DNA from: a virus
Length of the DNA: 64,000 nt
Direction: 5' to 3' (one strand)
Virus record (IMG/VR): IMGVR_UViG_3300029982_000012
In this document: one piece after another, positions 867 to 54,374 of the stretch
How the letters are laid out: each line of letters begins with the position of its first letter
How positions within the stretch are numbered: position 1 is the first letter of the stretch
Notes under the pieces: model-generated
The model's input: only the letters and a program-made list of their open reading frames with translations
What the model was told of the DNA's origin: nothing
The model's database searches: none
Translations under genes and position numbers: made by a program

Positions 867-1406
867 TTACAGATATTTGAATCTGAATCCTTTTGTATGT
901 GAATAAATATTGTTACAAACTTTACTTACTGCAGATGGGTCCAAGCCCAAATATTTGGCCGCATTATTGGCAGAAACGTATTTCCTAGAATCATTAAAGC
1001 AAAGAACAGGTTTTGCACTACCAGAACTTTTACCCCAATTTGGATGCTTGGTTTTATCTGAAAGCATTTTTTTTCTAGATTCAGATTGTTTTCTTTTTGT
1101 TTCTTCAGAGCGTATTTTGTTTTTCCCACCTGATTCAGCATTGTATCCATTTGGAACTAAACTATTGAATTTATTAATATAAAATTGTTCTTTTTTATTT
1201 AAATCTTCCAAATCAACTGCCCTATCTACAAAATAAAAGTCAAAATTTTCAAATCCGTAACTAGCAACGGCATTATGGAACGGTAAATTATTGGTTCTTT
1301 TAGAGGCAGCATATTTATGCTCTCTAATGCGTTCGTTCAAACTCCTAATGGTTTGTCCTATATACGCCTTACCGTTAATTTTATTAACCGCTCTATAAAT
1401 AATCAT
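867..1406 (-). CDS. GIY-YIG homing endonuclease with NUMOD-like DNA-binding segments
   Basis: IIYRAVNKINGKAYIGQT...R..EH, GYN, EETKRKQSES, C-terminal HTH-like ANNAAKYLGL. Confidence 0.9.
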   Translation of the reverse strand: MIIYRAVNKINGKAYIGQTIRSLNERIREHKYAASKRTNNLPFHNAVASYGFENFDFYFVDRAVDLEDLNKKEQFYINKFNSLVPNGYNAESGGKNKIRSEETKRKQSESRKKMLSDKTKHPNWGKSSGSAKPVLCFNDSRKYVSANNAAKYLGLDPSAVSKVCNNIYSHTKGFRFKYL

Positions 1407-1447
1407 ATATCCTTACCTGTATATATATATCATAAGATTGTCGGCCC

Positions 1448-2497
1448 TTATTGAAATCCGGCAAGTTGCCATGCAACACGATAATTATTCGTATCTACGG
1501 GCATATTCCATTTAACGGTAAAGGTCGTAGTAGTCTTGTTTGTCACAGTAATTGGTTGAAATTGTGGGGTAGCGTCGGTATAATTAGCCAATTCTGCAGT
1601 AACTACATAACTACTTGAACTCATGGGAACATTTAAAGTAATGGTAGCCGTTACTTCGCCCATAGTTAAAGGAAATTCCCCTACTTGCTCGATTGTACCG
1701 GCACCAACTAAATAATCGAGTTTGTAATTTGCCGTATCTAGAGGCATATTCCAGGTAGCAGTGAATCCCGTAGTTGTTTTGTTGGTAATTGTAATCGGCT
1801 GAAATTCTGGATCAGGATCAGTAGTATTTACCAATTGTGCGATTACCACATAGGTATTACTGCCTTGAGGAGTAACAAAAGTAACATTTACAGTAGTAGT
1901 ACCTTGGCTTAGAGCGACCTCATTAGCTGCTCCGCCTCCGCCACCACCTGATCCGCCTCCACCAACAAATTGAAAAATAGTGCTTTGGGTAATATTTTGA
2001 ATGGTTCCAGCATTATTAAAAATTGTAATATATGCAAATGGAAGAGTGCTATTTAAAGGAGTGGGAATTGCTGCATCTGCCGCAATAGCATTAGGAGTAC
2101 CAGTAGTAGCAATTAAATTACCACTTTGATCCAGGGATAAAAGAACTTGCATGTACTCATTTGATGGCAAAGTAAGTAATGTAGAGCCCCCAGTTGAAGT
2201 CGTAATATTTCCACCGCTAGCAGAAGGAAAAGTTACTGTTCCAGAAGCGAAAGCAGGAATAACATTATTAATAAAAGAGATTGATCTATTTCTATTGGAT
2301 TCAGGATTTGAAACAATAGCTGGTCCAATATCTACTACTAGACTTGGAGTGCTTGTTGCATCAACTCTAAGTGGCACAGTAAGATCTGCATTAATTGAAG
2401 CAAGTAAAATATCTAAGGTTTCACCGGCAACATATGGGAATAGTTGCTGGAGGATCCCTCTATACTCTATCTGTCTTGCATCTAACTCGATACTCAT
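1448..2497 (-). CDS. tail fibre-associated protein with two tandem H-type-lectin/gp53-like beta domains
   Basis: Gly linker then two repeats of VTF...YVV.A.L.N.TD..P.FQPIT.TNKTTT.FT..WN; in fibre cluster. Confidence 0.65.
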   Translation of the reverse strand: MSIELDARQIEYRGILQQLFPYVAGETLDILLASINADLTVPLRVDATSTPSLVVDIGPAIVSNPESNRNRSISFINNVIPAFASGTVTFPSASGGNITTSTGGSTLLTLPSNEYMQVLLSLDQSGNLIATTGTPNAIAADAAIPTPLNSTLPFAYITIFNNAGTIQNITQSTIFQFVGGGGSGGGGGGAANEVALSQGTTTVNVTFVTPQGSNTYVVIAQLVNTTDPDPEFQPITITNKTTTGFTATWNMPLDTANYKLDYLVGAGTIEQVGEFPLTMGEVTATITLNVPMSSSSYVVTAELANYTDATPQFQPITVTNKTTTTFTVKWNMPVDTNNYRVAWQLAGFQ

Positions 2498-2514: not shown

Positions 2515-5500
2515 TTAATTATTAACAATTGCTTGCCAAAATAATGAATAATTTGCAGTTGCTACAGGATAGTTCCATGTAGCGGTAAAACCGGTAGTTG
2601 ACTGTGCAGTTATAGTAATTGGTTGAAATTCTGGATTTGTATCTGTAGAATTAAACATATTGCAAGTAACTGAATAACTTGTACTTGGCAATCCTGAACT
2701 AAAAGTAACGGATACACTTGTACCAGCACTAGAAATTGCTTGAGAACCTGATCTGATACCCGCAGCAGTTAAAAGTTGAGCAGCGGTACTAGCAACCAAT
2801 AGGCCCGTAGAAGTAGCAGCAACAGGTCTTGTACCAGTACCAGCTAAACCTGCTATGGTCACATTTTGTGTACTGTCAACGGTAACTGCAGTTGTTAAGG
2901 TATTGGGAGTAGCTGCACTACTTCCAGCAGCAGGAGCCGTTTGGATTATTACAGATCCGCCTGCACCCGTACCAGTAGAGTTACCACCAGCGATGGTCAT
3001 AGTTGCACCGGCAGTATTGCTTGTGCCTGTTATGATAGGAGAAGGTTGAATAGATGCATTGGTCGCAGTTGCACTTCCTTTAGCGCCTTGACCAAGAAAC
3101 ATGCTACTGATAGGTACTGTAGGTGAACCAATACTAAATTGACTTGCTGCTGTCGTTGTAGCTGTTGCTGTAATGCTACCAATACTGCCCAATGCTATGG
3201 AGGCAAAAGCGTTCTTTTGTCCAGAACCGATAGCGATACCATCTGTTTCAGAAGAAGTTGTAGAACCAATCGCAATAGTCCTAAGTGAACTAGCTGAGTT
3301 TGAATTAGCGGTAAAGCCTAGGAATACGTTATCGTGACCTGATGTTAAGGTTCCACCAGTCGTAGAGCCAACGGCTGTATTTTGTGCTCCAGTAGTAATT
3401 GTTCCAATTAAGTTTGGTAGTGATCCAAAACCGATAGCGGTATTATCTGTAGCAACCGTATTGCTACCCAATGCAGAAGAACCTACTGCTGTATTGTCTG
3501 TACCCTGTGTATTATTGCCAAGTGCATTTTGTCCAATAGCAACGATCGTACCTGTAGTATTTGATGCACCGGCCAAATTTCCTACTGCTGTATTATTCGC
3601 TGCAGTATTGAGTTGTAAGGCGGCAGAACCTATCGCGGTATTGCCATTATGGGTGGTTACAGCGGCAAGTGCGTTTTGTCCAATAGCAGTATTATCGGTC
3701 CCACTTGAAACAAGTATTCCGGCATCCCAACCAAAAAAACTGTTGTTTCCGCCTGCTGCTAGAGCATTACCTGCAGAAACACCTACAACGGTGTTGTGAC
3801 CGCCTGTAAAAGATAGAGTGGTGTTAGTTCCACCGTATACAGAAGTATTACTAGATAAATATAAGAATCCATTACTACTTGCAGCAGTTGCCCATGCTGG
3901 TACTCCAGAAACTACTGTTAATACTTGACCAGTGGTACCGATAGCAAGTCTAGATGCGGTATTGGTTGCAGACTCATATTCTATATCACCGGTAGTAGTC
4001 ATCGGTGATAGTGCATTATATGCCGCTGCAGCAGTAGTTTGTCCAGTACCACCATTTGCTATTGGAAGAGCCGTTCCAGAAAGAGTGACCGCTAAAGTTC
4101 CAGAAGTAGTAATGGGAGAACCAGAAACACTTAAAAAAGAAGGAACGCTTAAAGCAACGCTGGTAACTGTCCCATTAGTAGCAGGATTTACCCAAGCAGG
4201 GAGACCAGAAACTACCGTCAATACTTGGCCGGTAGATCCAATTGCTAATCTAGCCGGAGCAGGAGTTGCATTTTCATAAATAATATCACCGGCAGTTGTA
4301 AGAGGAGATAAAGCAACAAATGCTGACGCTGCGGTAGTTTGGCCAGTTCCGCCATGTGCAATTGCAATTGTTGTCCCATTCCAAGTACCAGAAGTAATGG
4401 TTCCAACAGATGATAGGCTTGATGCTGTTGTTAAGGCTGAAAGTGTGGTTAAAGTTGCATTGCTAGTTGCAACCAAAGAAGTTGCATTTCCAACTGAAGT
4501 TACGTTTCCAGTTAAGTTAGCGTTGGTAGTTACTGTACCAGCAGTAAAACTAGCAGCAGTTCCAGTGATATTTGTACCGACCAATGTGCTTGGGGTACCT
4601 AAATTTGGGGTAACTAATGTTGGAGACGTTGCGAGTACGACTGCTCCAGAACCAGTAGTTGAGGCAGCGGAAATTGCTGTTCCGTTACCCTGTAAAATAC
4701 CGGTAATAGTGGTGGATACAGTTAAAGTTGTTCCGCTATATGTTCCTGCAAAACCATTTGCCGATGCCATCGACATAATTACTGCGCCATAAGCTCCATT
4801 GACAGAACTTACACCAGCAGCAGGGGTAGTGAGTTCCCATGCAGTACCGTTATAAATCGCTAGATCACCTACAGAGAAATTAAGACTAGCGCCACCGAAT
4901 GCACCAGCTACTATTCCATTAAAGGCAGTACTTACGTAATAAACTTGACCAGTAGTACCTGTTCCATCTGCAAGCGCTGGAACGTTAGTCGCTGGATCGT
5001 AAAGACCCTGGTAAACAAACACGCCATTTGGCAACTGGGCGACTGGAACTTTTCCGCCGCTATCTAATGACGCAACGCCATTTGCGGCTCCCACTTCAGA
5101 TTGCGTAACGTAAGTAGCGGATAGGCTCGGAATATCAGCGGCTACTAAAGCGCGGAAAGTGGGTTCAGCAGCAGAACCAGAACTTGGACCAGCAAATACC
5201 TTATTTGCCGTCTGAGTTTCTAAAGTAAGTGTCAAATTACCGGTGCTAGTAATTGGACTATTCGAAATCGCATAGATCGGAGTAGTACTCGCATCGGCTA
5301 AACCAACAGAAGAAACTGTACCGCTAGTCGCTGGAGTTTCCCAAGCAGGAACACCCGAAACAACGGTTAAAATTTGCCCAGTCGAACCAATTGGAAGACG
5401 TGCTGGGGCAGGAGTTGCATTTTCATAGATGATGTCTCCTTTTGTAGTCATTAGACCAGATGAAATCGTGGTCGTATCTACATAATTTTTAGTTGCTGCA

Positions 5501-37454: not shown

Positions 37455-37915
37455 GAGTTAAAATTAAAAAATTGCATCCAGATGCCATCATACCAAAATA
37501 CGCAACTCCAGGCGCTGCCGGTTTTGACTTGGTTGCCATTGAAGATGTAGCTATCGAACCTAGCACTACGGTTCTGATTAAAACAGGACTATCTTTTGAA
37601 ATACCGGAAGGCTACGAACTTCAAATTCGCCCACGATCTGGGACGTCTTTAAGAACACCTCTTAGAGTAGCAAATAGTCCAGGAACTGTTGACGCCGATT
37701 ATCGCGGAGAAGTTTGTGTGATTATGTCTAACATTCAAGTACATCCATCATACAGTGCTGGGCTATATGGTGTAAGTTTAGCGCAATACATTAACAAGGG
37801 TGATCGTATTGCTCAAGGCGTTATCTGTCCAATTATTCAAGGTTCGTTTGTTGAAGTCGAAGAGTTAAACAATACCCAGCGTGGTGCGGGTGGATTTGGG
37901 AGTACTGGGGTATGA
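37451..37915 (+). CDS. dut: dUTPase (trimeric)
   Basis: AGFDL, RPRSG, GTVDADYRGE, GDRIAQ, RGAGGFGSTG. Confidence 0.97.
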   Translation: MRVKIKKLHPDAIIPKYATPGAAGFDLVAIEDVAIEPSTTVLIKTGLSFEIPEGYELQIRPRSGTSLRTPLRVANSPGTVDADYRGEVCVIMSNIQVHPSYSAGLYGVSLAQYINKGDRIAQGVICPIIQGSFVEVEELNNTQRGAGGFGSTGV

Positions 37916-38169
37916 CATCTAGAGATTTTGCATATTGGCTCCAGGGTTTCCTTGAGGTTTCTAATCCTACACATATAGGAGAAAATGAAACCACTATTAT
38001 TAAAAATCATCTAAATATGGTTTTTAAGCACGAGATCGATCCTTCTCATGGCGATAAAAAGCATCAAGAAGAATTGAGTAAAATTCATCAGGGATCCTCA
38101 TTGCCAATTTCTGACGAAATGCGTCGCGTGCTGCAATCTGGGATTATCGAAGCTAAATTTAACTGTTAA
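37912..38169 (+). CDS. hypothetical phage protein
   Basis: DFAYWLQGF.E motif; ATGA coupling. Confidence 0.65.
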   Translation: MTSRDFAYWLQGFLEVSNPTHIGENETTIIKNHLNMVFKHEIDPSHGDKKHQEELSKIHQGSSLPISDEMRRVLQSGIIEAKFNC

Positions 38170-38178
38170 GGAAATCAT

Positions 38179-38403
38179 ATGCCCAAAGCAATACTGGAAT
38201 TTAATTTACCAGAAGAAAAGGAAGAGTTTGAGTCAGCCAAAAATGGTGGGTGTTATAAACTTGCTCTTTGGGATCTAGACCAATACCTAAGAGGTATCTT
38301 AAAATACAATAGTGATGCTCATGACCAAAAAACAATCGACGAATTACAAAATACAAGAAATAAACTTCATGAGTTTCTTCACGATTACGATTTGAGTTTA
38401 TAA
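38179..38403 (+). CDS. hypothetical phage protein
   Basis: KAILEFNLPEE motif common in phage ORFs; AAGGA RBS. Confidence 0.65.
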   Translation: MPKAILEFNLPEEKEEFESAKNGGCYKLALWDLDQYLRGILKYNSDAHDQKTIDELQNTRNKLHEFLHDYDLSL

Positions 38404-38408
38404 AAAAT

Positions 38409-38609
38409 TTGCGGCTGCGTGGAAAGCTAGTTAGGTACTGGAAGAGTCGTGCGCTCCAGTTTAAGATAGAAATACGCCTACGAGAGACACGCCTAATATA
38501 TCTAAGGCTGGAGCCTTATTGTGCGTTGGACGATAATCTGAACGCATCGAGTGCAGGGTAGATACTGCATAGGTAAACATCCAGAGTGGGATTTGCGCCC
38601 CACCCGCAA
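38409..38609 (+). ncRNA. tRNA-shaped structured ncRNA, copy A
   Basis: TTGCGG/CCGCAA closing stem, GCGTGGAAAGC...AGAGACACGC, several internal hairpins, GTGGG-ATTTGCGC-CCCAC; homolog at 46013-46174. Confidence 0.7.
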
Positions 38610-38611
38610 TA

Positions 38612-38785
38612 TTAATTCTTGTTTTTTTCGTAGATCTTAACTTCTTCTTTTATTATCTGACGACCTTTTTGTCGTTCTTTTCTATTAGCTTTACGCACAT
38701 CTTTTAGGGTACTATAGCCGTCTGTAGCCATTTCTATGGCTTGCTTACACCGTTTAGCGGTCTTTAGGGTATCTATCTTTGCCAT
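38612..38785 (-). CDS. small basic hypothetical protein
   Basis: 57-aa ORF MAKIDTLK... with AAGGA RBS (below ORF-track cutoff). Confidence 0.5.
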   Translation of the reverse strand: MAKIDTLKTAKRCKQAIEMATDGYSTLKDVRKANRKERQKGRQIIKEEVKIYEKNKN

Positions 38786-40439: not shown

Positions 40440-41450
40440 TCATTTGATCTCTCTTTTTACTTCATCAGAATAAACATGGTAAACGAAATCCTTGATCCAT
40501 TCAAGATCTGGTTTTGCTCGAAGAGTAGAAGTCTTTTCTACCTCGACCAATTCTTCTAGGCCAGAAGTAATCATTTCAGATACTTGTTCGAATGGCAGTT
40601 GTTCGGTCTTGATCTTAATTAGCAATTCCGCATCTGGACGAGGGAATGTGATATTTCCAGTACGAAGAAGTTCTAGGCCTTCACTGTTTACTCGAACAGC
40701 ATGGGAAAGAGCCTTAAAACATACTCCACCGGCAATATTTGCCTTGCGTGAACGAGATCCGTACTCTGCATAGATTCGACTAACAATGTCTAAAGCGTCT
40801 TTTGCTCTAATTGCCATGGGAATAAAGCGACCACAAATTTTTAGGTGAGGTTGATTCATTTCGCCTTTAGGGTCTGGTTTCATTACCATTTCTATAAGCG
40901 GCGTTTTTTCGAGATTAACCAACGATTGCGTATGGTAAATTAAATCAAGAATTCCTTTTTCGTGATCTCTTAATCTGTCATATGGAGGAAAGGTTTCTAA
41001 GGAACCGATAGCCATTTTAAGGGCATCCATGCGAGTACCTTTTACGCCATACTTTGCAGCTTGTTTACGAGCATATCCAATGAAGGCATTAACATTCTTA
41101 GAAATAATTTTCTCTTTATTATCCCGAATTGTTTTGAAGATGTACCAGTTAGCGGGGTTCTTTGCCGTAAACATTTCGTCTGGGGAGAAGATCATATCAA
41201 GGGCCATGGTCTGGCCTTCTGCGAATAATTTTAAAAATTGATCAACCGAGAAAATCTCAATATCTACATCGTCCTTACTATTGCGCTCTCCATGGGCCTT
41301 CTTTCGACTCATGTTTACCGTTTTGTGGTAGTCGTTTAATACGATTTGACGGCCCGTAGGCAAATAAATGGACTTAAAATCGAGATCAGACTTTGGAGTA
41401 GTTGTTCCGTAAAGAGCCGACCCAAATTTCAACTCAAAAAGCTTATTCAT
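40440..41450 (-). CDS. nucleotidyltransferase (Pol-beta superfamily, RlaP/Nuc-transf-like)
   Basis: GSALYGT.TP.SD.D, KYG.KG.R, KALSHAVR. Confidence 0.85.
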   Translation of the reverse strand: MNKLFELKFGSALYGTTTPKSDLDFKSIYLPTGRQIVLNDYHKTVNMSRKKAHGERNSKDDVDIEIFSVDQFLKLFAEGQTMALDMIFSPDEMFTAKNPANWYIFKTIRDNKEKIISKNVNAFIGYARKQAAKYGVKGTRMDALKMAIGSLETFPPYDRLRDHEKGILDLIYHTQSLVNLEKTPLIEMVMKPDPKGEMNQPHLKICGRFIPMAIRAKDALDIVSRIYAEYGSRSRKANIAGGVCFKALSHAVRVNSEGLELLRTGNITFPRPDAELLIKIKTEQLPFEQVSEMITSGLEELVEVEKTSTLRAKPDLEWIKDFVYHVYSDEVKREIK

Positions 41451-45045: not shown

Positions 45046-45909
45046 TTATTTGATATTCATTGCGTGCTTAGTTTCAATTTCACTTTGGATGAATCTGAAC
45101 AGTTGTCCGCCCATAGTTTTAGTCATTCCCTTTACTTCTGCATCTGTTCCTGTGATCTGACCTTCTTTGATCAAATCCGCAATGTAGTCTTTAGTAATCT
45201 GTGGAAGGGATTTAGGGTAACCAGTTAAATAGCGCTCATCTTTTGAAAGAAGTTTTTCGAGACGAATAGGTTGTAAGAGATGAGATACGTCGATTTTAGG
45301 CTTAGTATTTTCTCCAGAATTCCCCTTCTTGGGTTTTCCAGTCCATTGGGTTTCTTCTTCCTCAAATACAACTTTATATCGCTCGTCTTTAATACGAACG
45401 ACAACGCCTTCTGGGTGCATGAATCCAGAACTAAGTTTAGAGCCATTTGTTTTGAGTTCATCCATTGCAATTTGGACTTGATTGAGATCAATTGGACCCT
45501 CATAAAGAACTGGCACAAGAACGGTTCGTGGTGGAAGCGGCTTATCTTTATAACGATAATAGTCAAAAAGAACGAAAACTTTTTGTTCTAAACCTTCTCC
45601 TGAGTTAATGCCCTTGCCAGCCCATTCGCCATCATGACGACCTTCTCCAAGAAGGTCGATGAAAGCCTGCTTGTTTGCGTAAACATGTGTGGCGAAATTG
45701 TAGTTATCATCGCCAGGAACTATGAATCGTGTGCGTGATCCACATGCAAGATCGAATCCATCTTCTACCTGCATAGAACCAACGCCATCGTGGACATCTT
45801 TAAATTTACGGTAAACAAGAATGTGAGCATTTGTACCATGAATCTTTTGCGTGATTGACATGACTACCGAACCTAATTTTTTAATTTCTGGGAAAGCTTT
45901 AAATTCCAT
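45046..45909 (-). CDS. RNA ligase (Rnl2-like adenylyltransferase domain)
   Basis: Motif I QKIHGTNA, SR, GEW.G.GI, F.LFD, VPVLY.G, EGVV; AGGAGA RBS before MEFKAF. Confidence 0.85.
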   Translation of the reverse strand: MEFKAFPEIKKLGSVVMSITQKIHGTNAHILVYRKFKDVHDGVGSMQVEDGFDLACGSRTRFIVPGDDNYNFATHVYANKQAFIDLLGEGRHDGEWAGKGINSGEGLEQKVFVLFDYYRYKDKPLPPRTVLVPVLYEGPIDLNQVQIAMDELKTNGSKLSSGFMHPEGVVVRIKDERYKVVFEEEETQWTGKPKKGNSGENTKPKIDVSHLLQPIRLEKLLSKDERYLTGYPKSLPQITKDYIADLIKEGQITGTDAEVKGMTKTMGGQLFRFIQSEIETKHAMNIK

Positions 45910-46012
45910 AATTCTCCTAAATATAAACCCGTCACCACATGAAACCCATTTTAAGGCGCGTGACGGGCGCTCATGGAAAAGGTTAATGGTCAATCCCATG
46001 AACAAAAATTTC

Positions 46013-46174
46013 GTGACAGGTCAGTCGCTACTCTGACAAGGATACTACTAGGGCTACCCAATGTATTGTCTGCTCCCGTTCATTCCTAAATCCTACATTT
46101 AGATCTGCGTGTCTCTTAGTTTCTGGGGCGTCACGTCCAGTAAAGACTCAAACTGCTTTCCACGCCGCTGTCAC
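46013..46174 (-). ncRNA. tRNA-shaped structured ncRNA, copy B
   Basis: GTGACAG/CTGTCAC closing stem, GCGTGGAAAGC...AGAGACACGC, GTCAG-AGTAGCGA-CTGAC; starts about 7 nt after a sigma70 -10 box. Confidence 0.7.
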
Positions 46175-46214: not shown

Positions 46215-46247
46215 AAAAAGCCCCCTAAAAATTAATTTAGGAGGCTT
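46215..46247 (-). terminator. intrinsic terminator after ice-binding gene
   Basis: AAGCCTCCTAAA-loop-TTTAGGGGGCTT followed by T tract. Confidence 0.75.
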
Positions 46248-46276: not shown

Positions 46277-48124
46277 TTATGAACTAACTGCAACATCGTC
46301 GAGAGTAACTGCGGTCTGAGCATAAATACCTGTTCCGTGATATGTAGAAGTAGTCTGCATTGCCACGTTTGTACTGGCCAATATTGTTCCTCTGAATACG
46401 CTTGATACCCCAGCGGTTACGGATCCAGCAACAGCCCACATTACATTTGAAGCTTGTGCTCCGCCAGTCATTACGATCTGAGCAGAACTAGCTAAATTCA
46501 AGGTAGAAGAACATTGGAATACCCAAGTGTCGTTCACGCCACCGTTTAAGGTTAACGTTCCGGTAATAGAAGTTGGTACGGTTAATTTGTATAATCCTGG
46601 AGCGAGAGTTAAACCACCAAGAGCACCTGCGCCTGGATTGGTTTGTGTAGGAGTAGTAAGTCCTTGAGCATTTGTGTAAGCAGTAGTCATATTAGCAACT
46701 GCAGTGGTAAGGTTAGCAGGTGTTGGAGCACTGTAATCTGCTGCGAAGATATGTCCAGTTACATTTGGAGCAGTAGAGAATTGACCAGAACCATCTAAGG
46801 TGAGTGTGAAGCCAGTAATTGCTGTGTGAGCGATTGGGGAAACACCCATTTCGCCAGTAACTGCAGATCCTGAAGTATCACTGATACCACTTTCTGACAA
46901 AATTCTATATGCAGAAGCTGCTCCAAGACTTGGAAGAGCTGGTCCTAATGCACTAATGGTATAAGCAGCACTTCCAACGGCAGAGTTGCTCAATCCAGCC
47001 TTTACAGCTAAAACCTTAAGAGTTTCAGATGCATTGATCAGAATTGGACCTGCATATGCAGTACTTCCAGTAGTTGGGGTTGATCCATCAAGAGTGTAGT
47101 AAAATAATGCGCTAGAAGTAAGGGAAGAAACGGTAACCATTTGGCTACCAGCATAAGTTCCGGCTACAGGAGAGAAAGTTGGAGTTGCAACTTGACTTCC
47201 ACCGATAATGTAGGCTGCTCCATTTACGATAGAGTTAGCAAATCCGTTTTTGATAGCAATAGCATTAACTTGTTCACTTGCACTAACAGTAATAGGAGCG
47301 CTGTAAAGTGAACTATTGATAGAAGGTTGGCTTCCGTCAGTAGTATAATAAATTGAAGCACCAGCAGTTGCTGAACTTAAACTAACAGTTTGTGAAGATC
47401 CATAAGTACCAGCATTTGGAGAAAATGTAGGAAGAGCAGCCGCTTGACTAACAACCGTTGGAATTACAGTAACTTTGTTGCTAGAGACTGAAGAGGTCGC
47501 AGCAGCTACATCCAAAGCAATTGCGGCCTGGGTTTTAGTGGCAATCGCAGCAGCCGAGTCAGAACTGAGGATGGTAGCTTCGATACCGGTAAAACCGATA
47601 GGAGCTGGATTAACGTTAGTTCCGCCCGATACATTGTACCAAATATCGTACTGATTTGTATTACCAGCGGTAAATAGAGTGAAATATGCTCCGGCTCCAA
47701 AACTAGGGAAAGCGCTTCCGGCTGGCATTGAGAGAGAAATAACAGGTTGTTGTGCAGGTCCTTGAGTAACAGTGCTAGCACTGAAACCAGATGGCATAGA
47801 GATATTTTGAGGACCAGTATTAGGAATGGGCACTCCGATACCTACACCACCAGCCAAATTAGATAAAACGTCTGCTAAAGATGCGATAGGTAATTCGAAA
47901 CCGTCTGTAACGAATTCGATGTCACGAGCACTCAAGGCATAATTTCCTAAGATACAGTTTTGAAAATTTTGTGCAACTTGATTTTCCCCAAAACAACTCT
48001 CAAGTCGGGTAAAAGAGGACGGTGAAAGTAGGGCTTGAGTTTGGATTGCGTTAATAAGCTCGGCACCAGCAGTATTGTCGCCCATGCCCGAGATTAGAAA
48101 GGGAAGAGATGAAGATTGTAACAT
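46277..48124 (-). CDS. ice-binding protein (DUF3494) with two Fn3-associated/CHB_HEX_C repeats and a virion-type module
   Basis: C-terminal LGAA..Y.IL...AY..A.G...LGGLTLAPGLYK...WVFQ...GGAQASNV.WAV...F.GTILA...AQTAVTLD; two PTFSP..GTY..SQ.V....YYT.DGS.P repeats. Confidence 0.88.
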   Translation of the reverse strand: MLQSSSLPFLISGMGDNTAGAELINAIQTQALLSPSSFTRLESCFGENQVAQNFQNCILGNYALSARDIEFVTDGFELPIASLADVLSNLAGGVGIGVPIPNTGPQNISMPSGFSASTVTQGPAQQPVISLSMPAGSAFPSFGAGAYFTLFTAGNTNQYDIWYNVSGGTNVNPAPIGFTGIEATILSSDSAAAIATKTQAAIALDVAAATSSVSSNKVTVIPTVVSQAAALPTFSPNAGTYGSSQTVSLSSATAGASIYYTTDGSQPSINSSLYSAPITVSASEQVNAIAIKNGFANSIVNGAAYIIGGSQVATPTFSPVAGTYAGSQMVTVSSLTSSALFYYTLDGSTPTTGSTAYAGPILINASETLKVLAVKAGLSNSAVGSAAYTISALGPALPSLGAASAYRILSESGISDTSGSAVTGEMGVSPIAHTAITGFTLTLDGSGQFSTAPNVTGHIFAADYSAPTPANLTTAVANMTTAYTNAQGLTTPTQTNPGAGALGGLTLAPGLYKLTVPTSITGTLTLNGGVNDTWVFQCSSTLNLASSAQIVMTGGAQASNVMWAVAGSVTAGVSSVFRGTILASTNVAMQTTSTYHGTGIYAQTAVTLDDVAVSS

Positions 48125-49860: not shown

Positions 49861-49961
49861 TTGCGGTAGGCGACGGAATCGAACCGTACTTATACCTGCC
49901 TTAGCGAAGGTGGAATCGAACCACCGTGAGGAGTTACCCCAGACCAACTCACCTACCGCAA
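49861..49961 (-). ncRNA. tRNA-like RNA with two T-arms and no anticodon arm
   Basis: 12-bp closing stem, D-like hairpin, GGTGG-TTCGATT-CCACC and ACGG-TTCGATT-CCGT. Confidence 0.65.
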
Positions 49962-53427: not shown

Positions 53428-53498
53428 CTTACTGATCATTTTAGTAGCCTAAGACCATGCCTAGCATGGAACGTCGGTGCAAGTCCGGCTCAGTAAGC
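53428..53498 (+). ncRNA. tRNA-like RNA with anticodon loop reduced to CUA triloop
   Basis: CTTACTGA/TCAGTAAG acceptor, TTTT-AGTAGCCT-AAGA D arm, CCATGC-CTA-GCATGG, GTCGG-TGCAAGT-CCGGC T arm; no encoded CCA. Confidence 0.6.
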
Positions 53499-53739: not shown

Positions 53740-53881
53740 TGGGTCCAAGGGGCATGACTCGAACATGCGACACCCAGTTTATCATTCTGGTACTCTACCT
53801 TTAAGGTTACAATCATTCGGTCTGCGTTTCCCTTAAGACTACTCCGCAAACTTCCTTTTCACCATCTGAGTTACCCTTGGA
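53740..53881 (-). tRNA. tRNA-Ile(GAT)-like gene with 64-nt insertion in the D loop
   Basis: (T)CCAAGGG/CCCTTGG(A) acceptor, ACTC/GAGT D stem, CCAG/CTGG stem around AT-GAT-AA, GCATG-TTCGAGT-CATGC, 3' CCA. Confidence 0.65.
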
Positions 53882-53973: not shown

Positions 53974-54374
53974 TGGTGGACCTGAGAGCATCGAAGCCCT
54001 GTCCGTCGATCATTTCAAAATCAATCTACGAGCGTAGGCCGTTTAAAGTCCGGCTCAGACTTAGGACCATCACGATTAAATGACGGGCTCCACCATCTTT
54101 GTGTGGCAACCCCAAAGCGGGTATAGAAGCAAGCCAAACTCACCACTTGGATCGGCAGGTGACGCCGTTGTTTCCAGAATTATTTTACACAGTCACTGGA
54201 TACTGCGACAAACTTCTTATTTCTAAGCTGCTTGTAACTCTTCGTACTCTTCGTACAAAGAATCTTGAGAGTCTAACTCTGCATTTGTTTTTGATCAATT
54301 TTTAAGGTAGCCGTTGATCAACTACCGCTCGCATAATAATGTCCTAAACCTCCGTCGAAAACCTTTACAGGCCC
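53974..54374 (-). ncRNA. ssrA: tmRNA
   Basis: 5' GGGCCTG...TTCGAC, 3' CAGGTCC-A-CCA with G3:U70; tag ORF 54282-54223 reads AELDSQDSLYEEYEELQAA*. Confidence 0.93.

Follow-up and report, generated by a model that had tools for sequence, protein, structure and literature searches.

A predicted family of tRNA-like RNAs without an anticodon in phage genomes

Introduction

RNAs that borrow part of the tRNA shape have been described from several sources. In tmRNA, the acceptor and T arms of the tRNA-like domain enclose a large insert; there is no D stem, and a G3-U70 pair, a CCA end and a tag ORF are present. The engineered tRNA scaffold carries an insert in its anticodon arm. Phage T4 encodes two RNAs of 120-140 nt, species 1 and 2 (rnaC and rnaD), which have no anticodon and whose function is unknown (PMC9697503). 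YrlA RNA, found with Ro60, has D and T arms that mimic those of tRNA, with an acceptor-like stem-loop placed between the T and D arms (PMC4201824), and the allo-tRNAs and irregular tRNA polycistrons keep an anticodon and have a 12-bp branch divided as 8/4 or 9/3 (PMC5389517).

The RNA considered here occurs twice in a 64,000-nt stretch of viral DNA (IMG/VR record IMGVR_UViG_3300029982_000012; hereafter the window), which is part of a large myovirus-like phage genome, as its baseplate and ribonucleotide reductase genes and its tmRNA indicate. The closest cultured relatives of this phage have less than 50% identity at the ribonucleotide reductase. Comparison of homologous sequences argues that the RNA belongs to a real family, absent from Rfam 15, within the known kind of tRNA-like non-decoding RNAs. 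Like tRNA (RF00005), the family has the usual order of arms, a closing stem stacked on a 5-bp arm, a 2-nt linker and a predicted contact between the D and T loops; unlike tRNA, it has no anticodon arm with a 7-nt loop, no 7-nt T loop with TTCRA and no GG in the D loop, its closing stem is often 8-9 bp long, and CCA is rarely encoded. Because the anticodon arm, TTCRA and G3-U70 are missing, CCA is rare and the acceptor pairs are free, a member is, on sequence grounds, neither a decoding nor an obviously chargeable tRNA. That it could be a faithful tRNA mimic is doubtful as well, given the 8-nt loop without TTCRA, the rarity of CCA, the free acceptor pairs and the closing stem of 8-9 bp.

The inserts of the family sit where the anticodon arm would be, as in the engineered scaffold. 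With the tRNA-like domain of tmRNA (RF00023) the family shares a large insert enclosed by acceptor and T arms and a phage-borne location, but G3-U70 is found in 0/162 members (U3-G70 in 2), RF00023 gives no match and ORFs in the insert are at background level. T4 rnaC and rnaD (AF158101) are likewise small phage RNAs without an anticodon, but rnaC carries the canonical loop TTCGAAT, both are part of a tRNA cluster and neither fits the frame in our structural parser. YrlA, which also occurs in phages, combines tRNA-mimicking arms with a non-decoding role, but the family has the normal tRNA arm order and no recurrent protein neighbour; no Ro60/TROVE protein was found among the 20 window proteins scanned, and general scans gave no recurrent neighbour within 3 kb. 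Allo-tRNAs resemble the family in their longer acceptor stems, their extra loops and the fact that some are unused in translation, but in the family the T-like stem has 5 bp throughout and an anticodon is absent. As far as the text of Fremin et al. 2023 (PMC10690425; 10,006 unnamed models) allows comparison, the tRNA-like candidates reported there overlap ARAGORN calls, whereas the family does not. No description of the family was found in the mainly open-access literature searched.

A set of more than 100 distinct members, with covariation reaching a tertiary pair and with copies in cultured phages, is thus missing from Rfam. It would be a case of phages using the tRNA shape for something besides decoding, and it offers a tractable entry to the long-open role of anticodon-less phage RNAs such as rnaC and rnaD.

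Two copies in one phage genome

A first-pass annotation of the window had drawn attention to two intergenic loci on opposite strands, some 7.4 kb apart, with one shared architecture, and every element that it listed was found where it had been placed. Copy A spans 38408-38610 (+), or 203 nt, with ends inferred from the closing stem; copy B spans 46174-46013 (-), or 162 nt, and lies 7,404 nt from copy A. The features of the two copies and their surroundings are as follows.

38409-38414 / 38604-38609, +: closing (acceptor-like) stem of copy A, 6 bp and then U-U; covariation in homologues
38415-38416, +: 2-nt linker CT of copy A; family consensus CG, CT in 2/162
38417-38421, +: 5' strand (GCGTG) of the D-like stem of copy A, pairing with 38488-38492; compensatory variants in T-anchored homologues
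38422-38427, +: conserved 5' part of the D-like loop of copy A, GAAAGC; comparative evidence
38426-38427, +: GC of the D-like loop of copy A, predicted partner of the T-like loop; shown for the form with a 9-nt loop, by homology for the subtype with an insert
38428-38484, +: optional D-loop insert of copy A, 57 nt, with the ACTGGA hairpin; not conserved across the family
38485-38492, +: AGA end of the D-like loop of copy A and 3' strand of the D-like stem; conserved (AGAGA-CACGC is 38483-38492)
38493-38585, +: hypervariable cargo of copy A, 93 nt with three or four short hairpins, replacing the anticodon and variable arms
38586-38603, +: T-like arm of copy A, 5 bp with an 8-nt loop (stem 38586-38590 / 38599-38603)
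38595-38596, +: GC of the T-like loop of copy A, predicted by homology to pair with the D-like loop
38604-38609, +: 3' strand of the closing stem of copy A, stacked without a gap on the T-like stem and not followed by CCA
40440-41450, -: RlaP-family nucleotidyltransferase, between copies A and B
45046-46005, -: Rnl2-type RNA ligase, between copies A and B and adjoining copy B
46013-46174, -: copy B, with a 7-bp closing stem, a 40-nt D-loop insert, a 69-nt cargo and a consensus T-like loop
46182-46210, -: sigma-70-like promoter of copy B, 10/12 with a 17-nt spacer; the predicted start is the first base of the closing stem of copy B
46218-46247, -: terminator-like hairpin separating the promoter of copy B from the upstream gene
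53974-54374, -: phage tmRNA, the tag peptide of which is unusually acidic

An 11-mer shared by the two copies occurs twice in the window against an expectation of 0.03, and none of 100 shuffles reaches two occurrences; the AGAGA-CACGC motif alone is a weaker signal, matched by 3 of 100 shuffles. The D-loop inserts of the two copies are modestly alike (15 of 1000 shuffles score as high), and unrelated members score equal or higher. Folding of the single sequences is weak, with z of -1.92 for copy A and +0.09 for copy B; the D-like stem is absent from the minimum free energy structure of both, and the proposed frame costs 3.1 (A) and 1.4 (B) kcal/mol more, so that support for the frame is comparative.

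The T-like loop of copy A differs from the family consensus at positions 2 and 4, and in total there are three such departures, with all stems and pairing bases retained. Copy A occupies the space between two convergent ORFs, one of 74 aa that ends at 38403 and one of 57 aa that ends at 38612. The promoter scan gave no match of its own for it; we infer that it is probably transcribed as the distal part of the dUTPase operon. With three departures from consensus and no promoter of its own, copy A may be a drifting copy. The region is most likely, by comparison with its homologues, the gene for a folded phage RNA. The convergent ORF (38612-38785, -), 2 nt from copy A, encodes a basic protein that has no PHROG match and falls under the 60-aa cut-off.

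A constant frame in a family of phage RNAs

Searches with cmscan against Rfam 15 gave no match over the RNA in the window at the gathering score and at E up to 10, in 18 insert-type loci at the gathering score, or in 20 mostly minimal-type loci at E up to 0.5. No named family thus covers the two copies or the 38 homologue loci, as had been supposed from the copies themselves. ARAGORN and RF00005 did not detect the family as tRNA. An exact search with two D-arm motifs returned 24 viral contigs, 19 of which have a closing stem and a T-like arm that were not asked for, while two more run off the end of the available sequence. Conversely, a search with the T-like arm only recovered the full frame in 97 of 119 viral loci among the matches listed. 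The structural parser made 202 hits, spread over 191 loci, where reversed sequence gave 3, and the family has at least 162 members after dereplication and filtering. As members were gathered by exact patterns, some columns are fixed, and as the parser demands the stems, the columns that it ignores give the stronger tests.

The frame consists, in order, of a closing stem, the linker CG, a 5-bp D-like stem, the cargo, a 5-bp T-like stem with its 8-nt loop, and the closing strand. Among 18 hand-picked members, 10 of 14 pairs vary on both sides and 98.4% of cells are paired, against 27-44% in slid controls. The compensatory stem changes first seen between copies A and B hold across many homologues, and the comparison also bears out the arrangement of acceptor-like, D-like and T-like arms without an anticodon. 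The closing stem often continues past the parsed pairs, the next pair being Watson-Crick in 71% against 31% shuffled and one further in 54% against 30%, so that lengths of 8-9 bp are common; most members have 7-9 bp. All four pair types occur at acceptor pairs 1-3, leaving no fixed acceptor identity, and NCCA is encoded in 4/167 members; CCA may be added after transcription. The 8-nt T-like loop has the consensus RGUMGCGN (48 members found via the D arm, with U3 and G7 fixed by the parser). Many unpaired loop bases are invariant, and the core sequence is nearly constant across loci that span 26-70% G+C. Two loci (L131 near 4781, -; L188 near 8357, +) hold forms of 52-60 nt with the closing stem and T-like arm and without the D arm.

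Members are found in the cultured phages phi297, AUS531phi, Persinger, PotUPM1, POI1126 and Orimi01, whose hosts are Pseudomonas aeruginosa, P. otitidis, P. syringae and Ochrobactrum; the annotations of phi297 and Orimi01 place a hypothetical CDS over the RNA. BLAST of copy A against cultured phages gave no real match, and the minimal D arm was not found in E. coli genomes. A scan of GTDB with the insert-type pattern gave eight matches, one of them (L051) a clear member. The Hyphomicrobium-type matches (L046, L048-L050, L052, L053) lie in a conserved chromosomal non-coding stretch in which two short motifs are present and the frame is absent. Positions of members vary widely, even between related phages, and several phages (that of the window, L022, L087, L103) hold two or three copies with different cargo. 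The related 163-kb phage L022 has three, at 3789-4157 and near 4785 (-); two form a tandem pair that shares one closing-stem sequence but differs in cargo, and a homologue of window ORF 37912-38169 lies about 0.8 kb from them.

Contact between the D-like and T-like loops

The common D loop is the closed 9-mer GAAAGCAGA, present in 76/98 T-anchored members among the matches listed, and copies A and B represent a subtype with a hairpin inserted in this loop. The expanded loops of the first-pass annotation are present in both copies, but expansion of the D loop is optional in the family (22/98 T-anchored members among the matches listed). AGAGA, which had been taken as one unit, has to be divided: the minimal loop is GAAAGC-AGA, and the insert falls between the two parts. 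The ACTGGA hairpin is likewise in both copies, but in 0/67 other D-loop inserts, and with the closed 9-mer as the common loop it becomes a local element and not a family feature.

A scan for T-like loops altered at position 5 or 6 revealed that G>A at position 5 is accompanied in 14/14 cases by C>U at D-loop position 6, a change otherwise seen in 2/97. Among loci found via the T arm only, the pair is C-G in 95, U-A in 14, U-G in 2 and C-A in 0 (Fisher p 6e-16, uncorrected for kinship). Each of the two states is seen on four D-arm backgrounds, a distribution that speaks against a single inherited event. For the neighbouring pair there are single compensating cases, in L284 and L306. This pattern points to at least one Watson-Crick pair, and probably a second, between the D-like and T-like loops, as an analogue of the elbow contact of tRNA. 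All 14 U-A variants have the 9-nt D loop. In the subtype to which copies A and B belong, the pair is predicted by homology, and the same C could instead close the insert helix; a direct check in this subtype comprised two cases, one compatible and one degenerate.

An exchangeable cargo

In place of the anticodon and variable region, members have a cargo of 6 to more than 400 nt. It is hypervariable, with 149 clusters among 161, and nothing similar to the cargo of copy A was seen among the 161 cargos compared. Some cargos recur whether or not the frame has the D insert and whichever loop pair it carries, a pattern that suggests modular exchange. Two cargo subfamilies have conserved motifs of their own on different frames (L099, L100, L180 and L334; L008, L051, L056, L087 and L225), with no Rfam match for the members scanned. 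Cargo folding barely beats shuffles (median z -0.5; 11% below -2), and in view of this and of the 52-60 nt forms the cargo may be largely dispensable.

Two uses of the cargo were rejected. As for a guide RNA, its match to its own locus is 10.1 nt against 10.0 nt when shuffled (a comparison confined to loci of up to 15 kb and the window), the matches of the two window copies being 11 and 13 nt, within the shuffled range. As for coding, ORFs in the cargo are at background, 66 against 58 expected.

Promoters, neighbours and transcripts

A sigma-70-like promoter with its start at the first base of the closing stem is found in 10/158 members against 0.4% of control positions, an enrichment of about 16-fold for such leaderless promoters, and the 5' end of the stem is therefore probably the end of the RNA, as far as promoter prediction can tell. 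A terminator lies within 130 nt in 6 cases against 2 in controls. Of the nearest upstream genes 81/126 share the strand of the RNA, and of the downstream genes 73/131. No partner gene recurs within 3 kb, the commonest neighbour family (HNH-like) touching 11/162 members, and association with tRNA clusters was rejected, as 6/162 are within 500 nt of a tRNA gene. Partnership with the two enzymes encoded between the copies was rejected too: of about 330 loci, 2 have a homologue of the RNA ligase, which in the one of these with a parsed member is 6 kb from it, and none has a homologue of RlaP. The ligase beside copy B thus appears incidental.

The member in a Pseudomonas prophage is found in 14 RNA runs from 4 studies, as contigs of 19-36 kb with flat depth, and it had no coverage in two raw-read runs examined, a result neutral as to expression. 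A separate RNA, Betaproteobacteria-1 (RF02932), lies at 1351-1469 (+) in L071, 580 nt downstream of a member, and the window encodes a 615-aa protein with an ice-binding-like domain and Fn3-associated domains (46277-48124, -).

What the RNA may do

The account that we prefer, tentatively and with slightly less than even confidence, is that the family provides a self-folding tRNA-like frame which stabilises an exchangeable RNA cargo and displays it in trans. The constant part suits a self-folding, end-clamped L shape, the cargo varies, and the stem appears to be the 5' end of the RNA, all of which favours a stable carrier. Comparison of members shows that the 5' and 3' ends close into a stem of 7-9 bp stacked on the 5-bp T-like arm, that the D-like arm folds back so that its loop contacts the 8-nt T-like loop, as at the tRNA elbow, and that unrelated structured inserts are taken up at two sites, one within the D loop and one where a tRNA has its anticodon and variable arms. 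Beyond this fold, the RNA would be made leaderless from its own promoter (copy B) or cut from a longer transcript (copy A), and it would fold without a dedicated phage protein. Its clamped ends would resist exonucleases; it would be neither charged nor used in decoding, and the inserts would act in trans as ligands or decoys for host RNA-binding proteins. What the targets are, and whether there is a link to anti-phage defence, is a guess, and an anti-defence role is speculation. The boldest version, in which a universal non-decoding frame displays hundreds of exchangeable RNA ligands against host proteins including those of defence, as an RNA-level counter-defence library, has a slim chance of being right. 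A carrier of this kind would be the equivalent in nature of the engineered tRNA scaffold and, should the cargo prove to be the active part, a natural collection of RNA ligands with a ready-made stable scaffold.

The main rival, which we consider unlikely, makes the core the working part: an elbow-like surface would bind or titrate one conserved host protein, such as a tRNA-handling enzyme, a nuclease or a defence sensor, and the inserts would be filler. This would account for the near-constant core, the invariant unpaired loop bases, the very short members and the weak folding of the cargo, and it is in keeping with the presence of other odd tRNA-like RNAs in the same window and with the precedent of phage tRNAs that cancel tRNA-cleaving defence, as T5 tRNA-Tyr does against retron Ec78 (10.1101/2023.03.15.532788). 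It sits poorly, however, with an 8-nt loop that has no TTCRA and with the lack of an anticodon loop for an anticodon nuclease. Moreover, the loop pair tolerates a change from C-G to U-A, which fits a structural role better than a protein contact; some cargos are kept on more than one frame, and phages hold two or three copies with different cargo.

Next in rank, and distinctly unlikely, is a cis element of phage transcripts, either a processing or stability signal (an RNase P or RNase III cut, an exonuclease block) or a put-like antiterminator. Copy B does lie between a promoter and the Rnl2-type RNA ligase gene, the phi297-type copy is inside an early operon with its closing stem extended by about 11 bp, RNase III-like, and the nearest upstream gene tends to be on the same strand, as noted above. 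Yet a convergent ORF lies 2 nt beyond the end of copy A, and in Persinger a terminator and an opposite-strand gene come immediately after the RNA, which leaves nothing to antiterminate; the downstream gene is same-strand in only 73/131, no gene class is tied to the RNA, and L022 has tandem copies.

A selfish or vestigial element of no benefit to the phage (a decayed tRNA gene, an integration-site relic or a mobile RNA cassette) is ranked below this and is very improbable: HNH-like genes are the commonest neighbours, positions are variable and one copy follows an integrase, but such an element would hardly be expected to keep strict compensatory conservation that includes a tertiary pair, or dedicated leaderless promoters, and few members are near a tRNA gene. 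Scarcely credible, finally, is the idea that the GAAAGC/AGAGA internal loop is a double T-loop platform, as in RNase P, T-box leaders and the L1 stalk, gripping host tRNA elbows. In its favour, the strands look like the UG..A and AG..A cores of PMC3664808; against it, the closed 9-nt loop of most members (76/98 T-anchored ones among the matches listed) contradicts such a module in that form, being too short for two T-loops and pairing with the RNA's own T-like loop.

Other tRNA-like RNAs in the window and in member loci

Three further tRNA-like RNAs were noted in the window. An RNA of about 100 nt at 49861-49961 (-), upstream of a peptide deformylase gene, has a long closing stem and two canonical TTCGATT arms, and is not a member of the family. 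A tRNA-Ile(GAU)-like gene at 53740-53881 (-), missed by ARAGORN and Rfam, has a long structured D-loop insert, placed where copies A and B have theirs. At 53428-53498 (+) there is a tRNA-like body whose anticodon hairpin has a 3-nt loop.

Elsewhere, L034, L036 and L040 hold a 107-nt sister form, with a D loop of 6 nt and with TCGA in a loop that is more like that of tRNA; a GA in its D loop could pair with UC in its T loop, and a link to true tRNAs is possible. A canonical T arm lies inside an insert in 11/167 members, and in L088 (8849-9050, -) the insert resembles a permuted tRNA, with a T arm, a closed acceptor and a D arm, as in YrlA.
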